A DNA stretch of 64,000 bases from Eledone cirrhosa (lineage: Eukaryota): NCBI GenBank assembly GCA_964016885.1, contig OZ024742.1, positions 325,376,001 to 325,440,000 on the forward strand, written 5' to 3'. Under the pieces are notes generated by a model. It saw only the letters and a list, made by a program, of their open reading frames with translations. It searched no databases and was not told the DNA's origin. Shown here piece after piece: positions 2,721-60,208 of this stretch. A program made the translations under genes and the position numbers. Every line of letters begins with the position of its first letter. Position 1 is the stretch's first letter.

Positions 2721-5453
2721 TCTACCTGGAATTGTGACCGATAGATAGTATTAGCAATTGGAAAGACCAACGGAAACATTATTTCCTCGGTCCGATTTGA
2801 CGAAAGTCAATCGAAAAAAAAAGAATATATATATATAGTCTATCAATGTCCTTTCGTCACACATCTGTGACATCATCAGTGGTATTATTATGTTTCTTCC
2901 CGTTGTATTGAAATGCCTACGCCCTGTTTATTATTTTATTTATTTATTTATTCTTGTCTCTGTCTTTGTTAGCGCATGTACGTATAAACACGCACACATA
3001 TATTTTGCCAGTTTTCTGTGCATATAAAAAGAAGTAACACTTGTATGATTTAAATCTGAAGCATACGGTTAGAAAATTTCAAACTATCTGTTTATATCAA
3101 ACTGAAATGTTCCTGTCTACCATAACAAATAAATTGACAACGAAGTTTCAATTGAAATAGTTTTCTGGCACAAATGAAAGGAAAAATTCATTTTAATTCG
3201 AAAATAAATCTATATAATGAAACTTGTATAACGGAAACATGCATATTTATAGTGAAATTTGATGTGCTCTATTCAAATTCGTCATCTTCAAACAGAAAGA
3301 GAAAAAAGTCTCGTGATCGCGAAAGCAAAAACATGAGAAGAAAGATCATTGTGATATATTTCATATGACTTTCGAATAGAGATGCATAAGGAATTTGATG
3401 AGCTAGATCAAGCTATTGGCATAAAAAGAATATGTCAAATGTTGAAGCTGAACACACAGTTCTGATACTAAAATAGAATGATTAGAAATATCGTATACTG
3501 GTGAAAAACACAACGGAATACAACAGATGATGCGCTCCAAGAAGCAAATGCCAAGGAACAGCAGATAAAAAACAGAAGCAAAATAACTGTAATAACAATA
3601 ATTTCATTTACTCATAATTATAGTTTAAGGATATTATTTAAAATAATAATATTTCATTTTTCTCATAATTATAGTTTATATAAGGATAACAGTAAACGAG
3701 ATACATTTCTTATACATATACAGGTGTGTGTGTATGTTTGTGCATTGATTATGTACGTGTTTGTGTGTAAATATCAATATTCTATTGAGTTCTTTGATTG
3801 ATCTCTGTCTATTCAATTATTAGCTTTTTTTCATACAAAGCTCTAGAAACACTTTCCTACATGTCAACGTTTCGCCGTAAATTTTATTCACACATACACA
3901 CACACTCACTCACACGCAGACATATTCACACACATAAACACGCACACACACACACACACACTCACACACACATACATACACACACTCACACACACACGCA
4001 CACATATTTGTGTGCATATATATGTACATCTGATTTTGATAATATATATTTTATATATGCACGTATATGCATATATATATGTATGTAAATATGGCGTGTA
4101 TTATCGAATATTGGATAAAGATTATTGATTGCTCCTAAAAGTAAATTTTGCGCCTAAATTCATGCATGTAGTTATTCATTAGATATACATTTTAAAAACA
4201 TTGTTGTATCTATCATTGGTAGTTTGTTAAAGACAAGACTATATAATTCTATATGCATTAGGTTTACATACAATAGGCGCAGGTGGGATTCACTATCAGT
4301 CTTTATGTTTACGTCGAGTTAGATAGAAGTTCGACAATACGAGATCGATGAAAAATGTACCAGGCCGGAGAAAATAGGATGGAGAAGAAAGCCGTATACG
4401 AATCGATACACAAAATATTTCCATATAATAACCATTCCTTTAGTCTTGGGATTTTGGTAGCTTAGATACAACAGAACTTATATATATGGTTATTACATAT
4501 AAATGTGATCTATGTGGATTCGTACACAACTATATTGTTAATCAGGCTGTGTTATTGTTACCGTCAACTGTGTGTAGAAGTTTGTGTTTACCTACTACTT
4601 GTTCTTGAATATATGGAATACATGTACGCACACACACAATTACACCCCCTCGTATAAACACAACATTCTAAGCGGAATTGGCGGTATCAATAACACAGTC
4701 TAGTTATCAATAGGTAAATTCCTACATAAAAACACATAGAGAAAATCTACATATACATTAATTATAATAATTAGGTATATCAAACACAGAAGTGTTTGAC
4801 TTATCATTTCTTAAACTGTGTATATATGAATATGCATATAAATATATATATACATAAATACACACACACACACACACACACACACACACACACACACACA
4901 CACACACACACACACACACACACACACACATGCACACACACATATATCTATCTATCTATATATATATATATATATATATATATATATATAATGAATATAA
5001 CGAAGGAAGTGTGGTAAGGAACCAGGTGGACCATAACGCACCAGAATACTCGATACTATGGGTAGTAGAGTGGGTAATAGGAAAAGAGTCAGGAACCCGA
5101 CAGCTGAGCTCCGACTGTTTCGAAAGTTATCTCTGAACTGAGTTCGTATCTAGCTCTCAAAACGGCCGGAGCTCAGCCGTCGGGGTTCTGAATCTTTTCA
5201 TATATATATAAGTATGTATATGCGTGTGAGTAAGTGTGCGTGTTTGTATATATATATATATATGTGTGTGTGTGCGTGTGTATAGAAAAGAAAATCTCGC
5301 TCTACATGGCTGAATACAATAAATGTAATCTGAGTTTTTCGAATATTAATAATAACATTCGATTCGTTTGCAATTTTGCAAACAAACCTCAATTTTATAG
5401 CCATGTCAGTAGAATGAACACTTCCTTCTTGCTCTTATGTTGGCATGGGAACA

Positions 5454-5502
5454 GAACTACAGACACTAATGTTTCTGGTATCACTTTTCATCAGTACAGC
5501 TC
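5454..5502 (-). ncRNA. Minimal type I hammerhead ribozyme candidate
   Basis: gagctgta CTGATGA aaagtgatacca GAAA cattagtg TC tgtagttc. 8-bp stem I with G-U pairs; stem II degenerate. Confidence 0.7.
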
Positions 5503-5820
5503 ACTGTTCACCTGGCAAACGAATCGAATGTTATTATTAATATTCGAAAAACTCAGATTACATTTATTGTATTCAGCCATGTAGAGCGAAATTTTCTTTT
5601 TTATTTGAATATGGCAAAGCCGGCCATTTATCTCTCGTATACAGGAAACTGACTGGCCAGTCTGCTGATATGCAAATCTGGCTGATCAGTGGATCTGCTA
5701 ATATGCAGATCTGACTGATCAGCCAGTCTGCTAATATGCTAATCAGGCTGATCAATCACTGTGTAATTTTGAAAATAGCATATATTTTCACTAGCTCTGA
5801 CAGTTTGGCAGGTGAACAGT

Positions 5821-5870
5821 GAGCTGTACTGATGAAGGGTGATACCTAGAAACATTAGTGTCTGTAGTTC
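5821..5870 (+). ncRNA. Minimal type I hammerhead ribozyme candidate
   Basis: gagctgta CTGATGA ag-ggt-gat-acc-ta GAAA ca-ttag-tg TC tgtagttc. GUC cleavage triplet. Confidence 0.78.
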
Positions 5871-6470
5871 TGTTCCCATTCCAACATAAGTACAACAATG
5901 AAGGGTTCATTCTCCTGACATGGCTCTAAAATTGAGGCTTGTTTGCAAAATTGCAAACGAATCGAATGTTATTATTAATATTCGAATAACTCAGATTACA
6001 TTTATTATATATATATATATATATATATATATATATATACATATATATATATATATATATATATATATATATATATATATATATATATATATATATATAT
6101 ATATTAGGTATAGGATTATCCTAGATGTAGTAATGGTTAATTACTACACTGGATATGGGGATATGGTTGACGTACGGTGAGAGGTTACTCTACGAGTTAT
6201 GGAAGAATTGTTGAAGAAACTTAGTTCCTGATCCTTCTGTATACTGGAGTGTATATAAAGAATGTATAATAACAGGTAGACATCATAAAAAGGTAATTTA
6301 TTCCGTGTGCTTACAAATGTTTCCACGGTTGTACTACAGCCTATTTATGCTATGTGCAAATTTACAACTATTTGCAGAACTCAAATATCCATTACTACAT
6401 CTAGGATAATCCTATACCTAATAATCGCCTCCTACACAGTTGAGCAACCACACCGACATACGGCATTAAT

Positions 6471-57698: not shown

Positions 57699-57735
57699 CG
57701 AGCTGAGGATCCGTAATGTGAAACAAATGTTCTCG
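57699..57735 (+). ncRNA. Hammerhead candidate with degenerate stem II
   Basis: cgag CTGAGGA tccgtaatgt GAAA ca-aa-tg TT ctcg. Confidence 0.55.
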
Positions 57736-59831
57736 GTATGGTGAACTAACTGTTGTGTAACCACTTCTATATATATATACTATAATGTTAAGGAACAAGG
57801 ATTGAGTGTTGCATCATAACATATTTAATAACATAATACATACGTTTCACTATCGATCAGCTTGAGGCAAAACCTATTATAGATCGAACCTCACTCTGTA
57901 ATCGAAAGGTCAACAGATATGCTTAGTATATGATTTCCTCTTCGATTCTGTGTCATACAACTATATATATATATATATATATGTGTGTTCTGTGTATATA
58001 TATATATATATATATATATATATATATATATATATGATATATATGATATATATATGGGTATGTCCGTGTGTGTATGTGTGTGTGTATGCGTGTGCGCGCA
58101 CGTGCGCGCGTGTGTGTTGACATATAACAACGCCTATGTGGCTGCCCTCTGCTTGGTTTTTAGTACAAGTTTTACCGAGGAACTGGTCATTGGTCAACAA
58201 GGTTCTGTCTACTCAGTTCCTCCAATTCCAACTCGGTTAATTTTCTCCCTCTTTTTTTCTGGCACTATTAAGCAGAAGCCTAATAACTTGTGGGGAGGTG
58301 AAAGCCGAATTAAGTAATTTACTGGTACATTAGCTTTCGACCCTGGAATGTTGAAAGCAATATTAACCTTGGCAGGAGTTTTACCTTCTGAATCCAAATC
58401 CCACCGAGATCACCTATAATCTTCATATTTTCAAGGTAGATAAAATAAAATAACAGTCATGTACTGGGGTTAATGTAATTGATATAGGACCACCCGCCAC
58501 CAAAAATCATTGATATTGTGCGTAAAATAGGGAACTATTATTTCTCTTGTTTATATTCACTTGCTCTCAACATATATATTTCTTGTAAGATTCATTTAAT
58601 TAACATTCACCCTCTATATTGTGCCTAGAGGAAAATCTCACCGTTCAGTCCTTCGCGAAAATAAGGGAAACAAAATGAAAGAGCTGCTATAATTCTTTAC
58701 TCTGAGAAAAGTCCGCCAAAAAGCCATTTCTCACGGACAGTTGTAAATCTGAAATATGATTTTATTATTTTTTTTTAATGGGATGTGTATCGTCATCTCA
58801 GAAAATTATGAATATATTTGATATGAAAGTCAATAAACTGTTTTATCTTTGTCCCTCTTGCTTCTCCCAAACATCGCTTCGTGGCGTTGGTTGCCAGTGT
58901 TATTCATAGCTATGGTTCTCTAAATGTTTAATTTTAAACAAACCGTATTTCTTTAGAAATTCGAAATTCCAATATATATATATATATGACGCTCTATCTA
59001 TAGACTTTGATCGAGATTGAAGCCCAGGCTAGGTTCAACACCGTCTCTAATATCTACCTATGTCCATGCTAAGTACATTACTGTTGTGATCTACCCATAT
59101 CTCACTCCGTATTTGTATATATAACTCGTATATAAAGAAAGAAAAACAGATAAGGAATTCAATGAAATAACTGAGGTCTGTGTTTGTATTGGGAAATACT
59201 TAAAGTGTTTTTTGTTTGAGATTTAGCATAATGGCGTCGAAACAAATCCGTTTGGGAAATATGACCGAATCTCTGTTATGTAACCAACTGTCACTCAGTA
59301 AAAGACTTCTGAACTAGAAGAACGTCAGATGTGAGTCTCTGATCAAGTTTTGTCATATGCTGCATTTGTTTATTTCAATCTCTGTAATTGAATTAAATTT
59401 CTGAGCTTGATATTTACATATGTCAGGACATGAAAGATCACTTCACCCGAGCTTCCAATGGCATCAAGGAAGTTAAAGTATATGATAAATATAATTGTTC
59501 ATTGCTATAGAACAAGTCTTTGCCCGCGCACGCACACACATACACACATTCTCCCACATTTATATAGTTATATATGTATGTATGCGCGCGTGTGTGTGTG
59601 TGTGTGTGTGTATGTGTTGCAGAGAGAGAGAAAGAGAGATATTGATTGATTGATGGATAGTTTGATAGCTTGTTACACATACGAAAACACACACACATAC
59701 GCACACACACACACACACATACACACACACACACACACACACGCACATACACACACACACCTATATATATATATATACATATATATATATATAGGTGTGT
59801 GTGTGTAATATAATAATGATTTCTCATATAT

Positions 59832-60016
59832 GCACAAGGCCAGCAATTTGGGGGTAAGGGAAAGTCGATTAAATCGGCACCAGTGCGTGACTGGTACTTT
59901 ATTTTATTGACCCCGTAAGGATAAAAGGTGGGATTTGAACTCAGATCATAAATAGGCGTATCGCTATGCTGCAAGCATTTTGTCCAACGTTCTACCGATA
60001 CTGCCAATCCTCCACC
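59832..60016 (-). mobile_element. SINE family A variant
   Basis: Reverse complement with A/B boxes and a partly deleted core. Confidence 0.8.
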
Positions 60017-60208
60017 ACTAGAATTAGTCCAGAATTAGCCGTCGAAACGGTTTGAGCTCAGCCGTCAGGGCCCTACTCGTATATATATATGTATATATAT
60101 ATATACATATATTCATTAGTTAAGCAAAACAAGACCACAAATTTCACAAGGCAGACATTATTAAAAGATTATCAACATAGTTTTAGTTTAATCTAAGGAT
60201 TGTAGAGA

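Follow-up and report, generated by a model that had tools for sequence, protein, structure and literature searches.

Hammerhead ribozymes between (TA)n tracts in Eledone cirrhosa: Penelope-like elements and retrozyme-type monomers in a genome-wide landscape

A stretch of 64,000 nucleotides from Eledone cirrhosa (contig OZ024742.1, positions 325,376,001 to 325,440,000; here called the window) was predicted from its letters alone to contain a community of type I hammerhead ribozymes between (TA)n tracts, which raises the question of what these motifs are and how they came to be there. The window (34% GC, rich in (TA)n, and part of a 3.0-Gb assembly) is very probably an unremarkable, somewhat enriched piece of a genome crowded with endonuclease-positive (EN+) Penelope-like elements (PLEs) and their non-autonomous, hammerhead-bearing passengers. 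The original prediction offered two origins, relics of PLE pseudo-long terminal repeats (pLTRs) or non-autonomous ribozyme RNAs, and both hold, in different families. We counted 11 families (A to K), in line with the predicted 10 or more unrelated in sequence. B, D, E, G, and J are PLE 3' ends, that is, pLTR or 3' untranslated region (UTR) relics of autonomous elements (for J, probably so); A, C, F, H, and I are retrozyme-type monomers of 306 to 1291 nt without an open reading frame (ORF), and K is placed in neither class. Hand-drawn element bounds, PLE bodies included, occupy about 24% of the window.

Hammerhead motifs in the window and across the genome

The base type I descriptor (CUGANGA, GAAA, and NUH, with a stem I of at least four pairs and a stem III) matched the window nine times, against 0.22 +/- 0.45 times in 60 local dinucleotide shuffles and not at all in the reversed sequence. 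With a stem II of up to 70 nt there were 10 matches, against 0.33 (maximum, 2) in 40 shuffles, and the predicted enrichment is therefore real by the shuffled control that had been proposed for it. A first descriptor needing a paired 10.1-11.1 position was too strict (three matches), and a relaxed core lost specificity (14 matches versus 3.0 in shuffles). The strict descriptor yields one motif per 6.4 kb, sparser than the roughly one per 4 kb originally estimated.

The prediction listed 17 sites as complete, and for eight of them this description stands, with cores at 5494-, 5829+, 26996+, 30445+, 30969+, 45245-, 55045+, and 57703+. It fails for the remaining nine. Two have an intact core but damaged helices (13453- and 51152+), and two have an intact core with a stem I that is unpaired even in the family consensus (14301- and 48863+). 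Five are core mutants: 9277+ lacks GAAA, 13147- reads CTGATGG, 13852+ reads CTGATTA and has a deletion, 26380+ reads CTCATGA, and 51117- lacks G12. These non-passing sites are decayed or atypical copies of hammerhead-type families; 16 of the 17 sites belong to multicopy families, and 9277+ had no other copy among the loci examined. Two passing sites (23172- and 55697+) were absent from the list, and additional damaged copies lie at 2879-, 22337-, 57916-, and about 15780+. The proposed Rfam check gave no hammerhead family, either among the 150 listed of 288 window matches or in all 148 matches of a family I array; the output consisted solely of microsatellite-driven microRNA matches. A repeat search of the window was likewise dominated by microsatellites.

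Genome searches gave 41 to 146 matches per query (158 to 3,343 first-look candidates), and the best 39 to 40 candidates were scored. The consensus fits the type I descriptor in 11 of the 13 motif types that have copies (A, C, E, G, their older or diverged relatives E2 and G2, F, H, I, J, and K, but not D1 or D2); B has no other copies. Since the copies of any one family are too young for core and loops to be told apart, pairing was tested across families, on 276 motifs picked by core and stem III only, which gave 23 clusters of at least two sequences. Over these clusters the modal stem I strands pair at 4.04 of the first five positions, against 2.29 in 2,000 shuffles (maximum, 3.17), so that the helix is kept while its sequence changes, as the suggested test of stem covariation would have it. 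Stem I pairing is low in three clusters, in two of them through register ambiguity in a TA-rich stem III. A plain cross-family alignment was uninformative. Stem II is long and branched in several motifs (F, G, and H). In 9 of 11 types the stem III strands are able to self-duplex from end to end, and a self-complementary stem III is described as a dimer-type design (PMC4209133). Judged from sequence, the window motifs are selected type I hammerheads with predicted self-cleavage.

What was presented as a community of this window is a genome-wide landscape, and in this respect the window is not special. The downstream flanks of 177 loci elsewhere contain 45 descriptor matches in 244 kb, about four of them further copies of the queried family, against 0 to 2 in shuffles; in these flanks, single core-mutant controls gave 0 versus 19, and a swapped control gave 5. 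Two non-overlapping exact patterns occur 80,426 and 38,580 times in the genome (119,006 in total), whereas their reversed controls occur 164 and 236 times (400 in total). The exact patterns ignore stem I and catch one window site and 25 flank sites. Extrapolation suggests a load of about 150,000 to 250,000 motifs and a window some two- to threefold above average, with the flanks of examined loci (2.9-fold above the genome mean for one pattern) and the whole-genome pattern counts standing in for background. The commonest genomic hammerheads, with a stem III of TATATA or TATGTA in several families, are not among the exact pattern matches of the window. As at least 119,006 core-intact motifs are undetected by Rfam where this was checked, the result matters for repeat annotation.

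ORF-less monomers and PLE 3' ends

Five families lack coding capacity. Family A, a monomer of about 438 nt, occupies 5282..6005 (+) with a direct run at 5515-6005 (core 5829, predicted cleavage after 5862, and an exact octamer at 5670) and an inverted piece at 5282-5520 (core 5494). Family C, of about 306 nt, has three decayed cores at 12989..14044, where two inverted units, 12989-13594(-), meet a direct run with a tail, 13592-14044(+). It recurs at 50988..51589 as an inverted pair (cores 51117- and 51152+) with a 3'-half copy at 51427-51589, and as an older copy at 15681-15956. Family F has a single monomer here, about 1.3 kb long and enclosed by (TA)n tracts, at 25261..26575 (+), with a mutated core at 26380. 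Family H (about 525 nt; 30347..31333, +) has 1.8 tandem units plus an inverted head, and both of its cores, 30445 and 30969, pass. Family I (about 450 nt; 44676..45705, -) has a passing core at 45245, an octamer at 45326, and an internal (TA)n of variable length, and its window copy is split by an unrelated insertion at 44826-45015.

Across the genome, monomer lengths are 438 nt in A, 306 in C, 515 to 534 in H, 428 to 522 in I, and 1271 to 1304 in F. In all five families a unit is preceded by its own 3' end, head to tail, with no ORF between cleavage sites. Complete cleavage-to-cleavage units number 25 in H, 24 in I, 7 in F, 2 in C, and 0 in A, and family A is thus of the partial-tandem form only; runs reach at least 15 units in I and about 7 in H. 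GC content is 0.33 to 0.37 in C, F, H, and I, i.e., below 45%, and copies of I are 98 to 99% identical. Circular folds have z values of -11 in A (where internal repeats are present), -5.5 in H, -5.0 in I, -2.2 in C, and -0.8 in F. Units of F gave no PLE match by tblastn, and PLE matches upstream of I and F loci are host elements. Family I was also considered as the pLTR of a Hydra element, and this was rejected as the adjacent ORFs belong to host elements into which I had inserted. The five families are, as their sequences indicate, retrozyme-type monomers inserted with PLE marks, for which a circular RNA form is predicted.

Family D, or Hydra-1, is a young Hydra-type PLE, present as a 5'-truncated copy at 45738..49011 (+). 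This copy has a frame for reverse transcriptase (RT) and GIY-YIG at 45790-47874, which lacks about 100 N-terminal residues, and an inverted 5'UTR piece at 45738-45839. Its 3'UTR of 1.14 kb has an internal (TA)n between two cores, at 47991 and 48863 (870 nt apart), and ends 105 nt past the second predicted cleavage site. A split hammerhead spanning both cores was rejected, as the pairing looked poor by eye. The protein had no Pfam match; its look-alikes in the Atlas have GIY-YIG or HTH_animal on 29 to 96% of members, and P0002 gave no meaningful match against the PDB. Besides the window copy there are at least 63 genome matches with 99% protein identity, and at least 43 of the 64 listed matches retain a 785-aa open frame; the unit measures 3,631 nt from 3' end to 3' end. 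Full-length relatives have RWK, DKT, YRDD, CxCX5C, CxxC, and CxH, lack GxKF/Y, and target (TA)n. Such a motif set defines the Hydra clade (Craig et al. 2021, PMC8557442), and the supplement of that paper includes Hydra-1_Obim, with a (TA)n preference. An older, 5'-truncated copy of the Hydra-1 3'UTR, 91 to 92% identical, lies at 14149..15177 (-; cores 15031 and 14301), and the sites originally placed at 14251(-) and 48857 therefore represent one PLE pLTR.

The other coding-linked families are represented by less complete copies. Family B, a broken second Hydra-type PLE at 6104..9382 (+), retains RWK, DKT, YRDD, and CxCX5C over several frames, an inverted piece at 6310-6391, and the pLTR core at 9277 without GAAA. 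Family E is the 3'UTR of a Neptune/Nematis-type PLE at 22922..23396 (-), with a passing minimal hammerhead core at 23172, and as a fragment at 55623..55946 (+), with another at 55697. Upstream of E lies a 736-aa PLE frame with a CX2-5CxxC linker before the C-terminal GIY-YIG; the end of this ORF was found at 13 of 30 loci, and its GIY-YIG and RVT_1 profile matches are weak and under cut-off. An older relative, E2, is present at 22058..22410 (-; core 22337) and 2838-2952 (-; core 2879). Three 3' fragments of an abundant E-related family, at 2265-2442, 22104-22275, and 30151-30303, derive from downstream of its hammerhead. Family G comprises the last 167 nt of a Hydra-type PLE at 26963..27129 (+), with a passing core at 26996 and a 62-nt stem II region; its 3'UTR is about 2 kb long, a Hydra endonuclease end lying 2 kb upstream. 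G2, about 78% like G, lies at 57780..57955 (-), and its core is mutated in the window copy (57916). An inverted pair of hammerhead 3' halves at 53515-53843 is about 71% like G.

Family J, whose 3' end lies at 54997..55140 (+; core 55045, passing), is probably a pLTR relic of an autonomous PLE. Family K is a 78-nt 3' end with a minimal hammerhead at 57690..57767 (+; core 57703, passing); the genome search intended for it brought up G2 instead. At J and K loci (L227-L247, L081, and L149), 5' truncations group at ATAT just upstream of the hammerhead, which suggests microhomology with the (TA)n target. The predicted AATAAA downstream of several motifs is borne out within 60 nt of the cleavage site in J (22/22), G (14/22), and G2 (1/15), but in none of A, C, E, F, H, or I.

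Insertion marks, template form, and competing explanations

The (TA)n tracts predicted to bound nearly all motifs follow 18 of 22 element 3' ends of the window in a scripted check, although some tracts proved internal to elements, as in the Hydra-1 3'UTR and the family I monomer. Genome-wide, (TA)n comes after the 3' end in 88 of 108 ORF-less copies, and in 158 of 193 copies of nine families together, against a background of 12.6%. The predicted tandem-plus-inverted-end architecture was recovered as partial tandems, variable 5' truncation, and inverted heads, an inverted piece standing at the 5' junction in 70 of 111 monomer copies (a few H loci overlap). Two fixed 3' ends past the cleavage site are found in A (+140/+177, 37 nt apart) and C (+131/+174, 43 nt apart), and tails measure about 37 nt in A, 43 in C, 66 in H, 78 in G, and 34 in J. 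Frangieh et al. 2024 (PMC11167929) showed that a tail of this sort is the stretch separating two internal RT start sites, and tail, partial tandem, and inversion have been described as PLE marks (PMC8557442; PMC11167929). The same marks occur on PLE-coding families of this genome. The RNA sequence past several fixed 3' ends reads TA or TAT, which suggests short pairing with the target. In A, C, and H, one of the two fixed 3' ends adjoins a run of four to six T.

The 5' ends give some insight into the template. We rejected the idea that they are set by proximal cleavage, as none of 76 inverted pieces stops at that site (1 of 36 incidental copies ends within 10 nt of it); the RNA being copied was therefore uncleaved there, or had been religated. 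At the upstream cleavage site, by comparison, the hazard in the first half of the interval would let 6.5 of the 24 direct runs of family A pass; none does, and three end 3 to 9 nt before it. In family C, 5.6 passing runs are expected and 2 of 20 are observed (P = 0.054). For A and C this suggests, from a small and score-selected sample, that the template is linear and owes its 5' end to cleavage. The second cleavage site is passed in 23 of 23 runs of H (forced by query length), 10 of 21 of I, 5 of 24 of F, and 2 of 20 of C. Units of H diverge by 0.23% inside one locus and by 2.29% from one locus to another, and the haplotype of a locus extends to its inverted unit, a homogeneity as expected from one circular or homogeneous template. 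Units of I differ by 3.9% within loci and 3.2% between them. A 31-unit array of a 466-nt relative of I (L270/L271, G000:C1:5737700-5753700) carries an inverted head and is bordered by (TA)n on either side, with recurring variants at 0.48% among 16 sampled units; this monomer combines a perfect stem I of 7 bp with an octamer at -131 and a circular fold z of -13.5.

Taken with the mechanism steps inferred from Frangieh 2024 and Craig 2021, these marks would fit the following course. A PLE RT/GIY-YIG protein would bind the RNA and nick (TA)n DNA, with RT starting internally at one of two fixed sites 50 to 310 nt past the hammerhead, the interval between them becoming the tail. Copying would run through the proximal hammerhead and halt at no fixed position, and the inverted 5' piece would result from another priming event on the opposite strand. 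With autonomous elements, most products would be pLTR relics truncated at the 5' end. With A, C, F, H, and I, a multimeric or circular non-coding RNA would serve as template, so that an insertion would appear as a circularly permuted head-to-tail run. Given the self-complementary stem III, the hammerheads probably cut as dimers and trim multimeric transcripts to units. Most single genomic copies are dead relics.

It would be simpler if every family, monomers included, were a pLTR relic of an autonomous PLE with an unsampled coding part. That account holds for B, D, E, G, and probably J, and it gains from flanks of just 1.5 kb at most loci and from the lack of two full tandem hammerheads in A (0/24). 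It is nevertheless improbable for the whole set, as A, C, F, H, and I stand head to tail with no ORF between cleavage sites and runs cross the second site in H, I, F, and C. Alternatively, the monomers could be DNA-level satellites, spread by unequal crossover or rolling-circle DNA, with (TA)n a mere recombination substrate. Recurring variants in the 31-unit array (G000:C1:5.74-5.75 Mb) and in the I array of L224 would then reflect amplification after insertion; the copies are, however, scattered on many contigs; their 3' ends are fixed, their 5' ends vary, and they have tails and inverted heads. The 31-unit array, too, shows such a head, with (TA)n on both sides, and all this makes a satellite origin very improbable. 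Mobilization by the RT of a long interspersed nuclear element (LINE) has candidates at hand, as RVT_1 frames of an RTE-like and a second LINE lie in the window at 18354-20552 and 60499-62989. We regard it as extremely improbable, since tail, partial tandem, and inversion are PLE marks present on PLE-coded families here and the monomers have no AATAAA in common past the cleavage site. The 18354-20552 (+) frame is 732 aa long, matches RVT_1 at an E value of 1.9e-29, runs into a microsatellite, and by its motifs is presumably an RTE-like LINE; at 60499-62989 (-) lies a LINE RT that is broken into three frames and matches RVT_1 and zf-RVT.

Several observations weigh against the account of PLEs and their passengers that we prefer. 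The most active PLE, Hydra-1, lacks a descriptor-fitting hammerhead, neither core having a pairing stem I. The link of G to a PLE was seen at 1 of 4 extended loci, and that of J, a Hydra-type endonuclease end 300 nt upstream, at 1 of 22. Core-proximal stem I has a probability below 0.1 in 5 of 11 consensus motifs folded alone. The monomers gave no match, microsatellites excepted, to seven UTR stretches of PLE-derived families. The copies analyzed are the best-scoring matches and not a random sample. Long arrays, moreover, carry recurring variants in non-adjacent units, which plain repetition of a single circle would not give; for these arrays we rejected pure rolling-circle copying from one circle, which may apply to H. 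The original attribution of mobilization to the window's own RT also finds no support here, given its missing N-terminal residues and the absence of sequence shared between the monomers and the compared UTRs.

An additional lead concerns the octamer, present without mismatch in 22 of 24 copies of A and 23 of 24 of I, 118 to 193 nt upstream of their cleavage sites, and in at most one copy of seven other families. In the relative of I it lies inside the stretch most alike to I, and the octamer module is thus common to three monomer families. The octamer is, we assume, an element of small nuclear RNA (snRNA) promoters, and by analogy it may act as an internal promoter, which we treat as a lead only. 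Newt satellite 2 has an internal snRNA-type promoter (cited in PMC2220036) and resembles A, I, and the I relative as a hammerhead monomer with a possible internal promoter, here a candidate only. It could be speculated, tentatively and with considerable doubt, that the monomers are modular PLE "ribozyme SINEs" (SINE, short interspersed nuclear element). In such a unit, transcription would begin shortly ahead of the hammerhead, driven by an internal snRNA-type promoter made up of the octamer and a conserved box downstream of it; the 5' end of the RT template would be fixed in vivo by dimeric cleavage, and the PLE RT start would lie downstream. If so, some 200,000 motifs would rank with the largest ribozyme loads on record, and this would be the first genomic indication of hammerhead cleavage shaping PLE-type insertions.

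Other elements share the window. An abundant palindromic, (TA)n-flanked family without a hammerhead core lies at 4991-5246, 21804-22030, 44826-45015, and 55191-55252, one copy sitting inside the internal (TA)n of family I. A second (TA)n-flanked family, inverted-plus-direct and without a CUGANGA core, is found at 44175-44374, 49643-49932, and 52576-52967. Two tandem 221-nt units at 42764-43208 begin with what we take to be a Helitron-like 5' end, and a dispersed family of about 190 to 210 nt (16205-16416, 21393-21590, 23411-23598, 37408-37741, and 40332-40528) is presumably SINE-like.

Relation to known systems

Metazoan PLE pLTR hammerheads (Cervera and de la Pena 2014, PMC4209133) are likewise mostly single motifs from truncated PLEs, with inverted pairs 100 to 700 bp apart, a short palindromic stem III, and several families per genome. 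The present set differs in the long branched stem II regions of F, G, and H, and in number: the top minimal-motif counts in that paper are about 4,000 and 9,000 per genome, against at least 119,006 here, the search methods being different. Published loads include about 9,000 minimal motifs in Xenopus, more than 6,000 motifs in Acropora and about 5,000 in mussel (PMC7229834), and up to 120 000 in axolotl, whose figure is equaled here in a genome about nine times smaller.

Animal non-LTR retrozymes (PMC7229834; bioRxiv 10.64898/2026.07.22.740005) share with our monomers ORF-less tandem units with one type I hammerhead each, GC below 45%, a possibly self-paired predicted fold, and co-occurring PLEs; family F, at 1.3 kb, exceeds their reported range of 51 to 972 bp. 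Mobilization of animal retrozymes by PLEs was proposed in 2020 (PMC7229834), and their derivation from PLEs has homology support (Li, Clavereau and Pollet 2026, bioRxiv 10.64898/2026.07.22.740005). The PLE link in those papers draws on co-occurrence and pLTR homology, whereas here it is the signature of tail, inversion, and (TA)n, with no pLTR homology detected. Non-autonomous PLEs of Chlamys, e.g., MRC1 (PMC8557442), are similar in being ORF-less, with pLTRs and insertions of multiple copies placed head to tail, and unlike in that canonical hammerheads are mostly absent and their 3' ends resemble those of the autonomous partner.

Among autonomous elements, Hydra-clade PLEs (PMC8557442) match family D in RWK, DKT, CxCX5C, CxxC, and CxH, the absence of GxKF/Y, a C-terminal GIY-YIG, and a (TA)n target. 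The family D unit is longer (about 3.6 kb versus less than 3 kb), its 3'UTR has an internal (TA)n and two non-canonical cores, and its copies are very young as well as abundant. Poseidon PAc of the anole (Frangieh et al. 2024, PMC11167929) likewise has two fixed internal RT starts past the hammerhead that define the tail, an AT-rich target, and no 5'-end pile-up at the proximal cleavage site (here 0/76). Its hammerhead cleavage is dispensable in vitro, whereas insertions of family A appear limited at the upstream cleavage site.

In a literature search that left subscription journals and Repbase/Dfam outside its range, PLE hammerheads and cephalopods appeared together only in Craig 2021, and neither the tail-and-inversion signature on hammerhead retrozymes nor such a cephalopod load was found; the available portion of PMC13282606 makes no mention of ribozymes. 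In published work, the enzyme that moves animal retrozymes and the role of PLE hammerheads in the cycle are open questions. The co-existence of young monomers with mapped RT starts and a PLE family in which dozens of 785-aa frames are intact makes trans-mobilization directly testable. This kind of system is already known, and the observations are largely explained by it; to it the present analysis adds insertion-signature evidence, very high motif numbers, an octamer shared by three monomer families, and an apparent length limit in family A.

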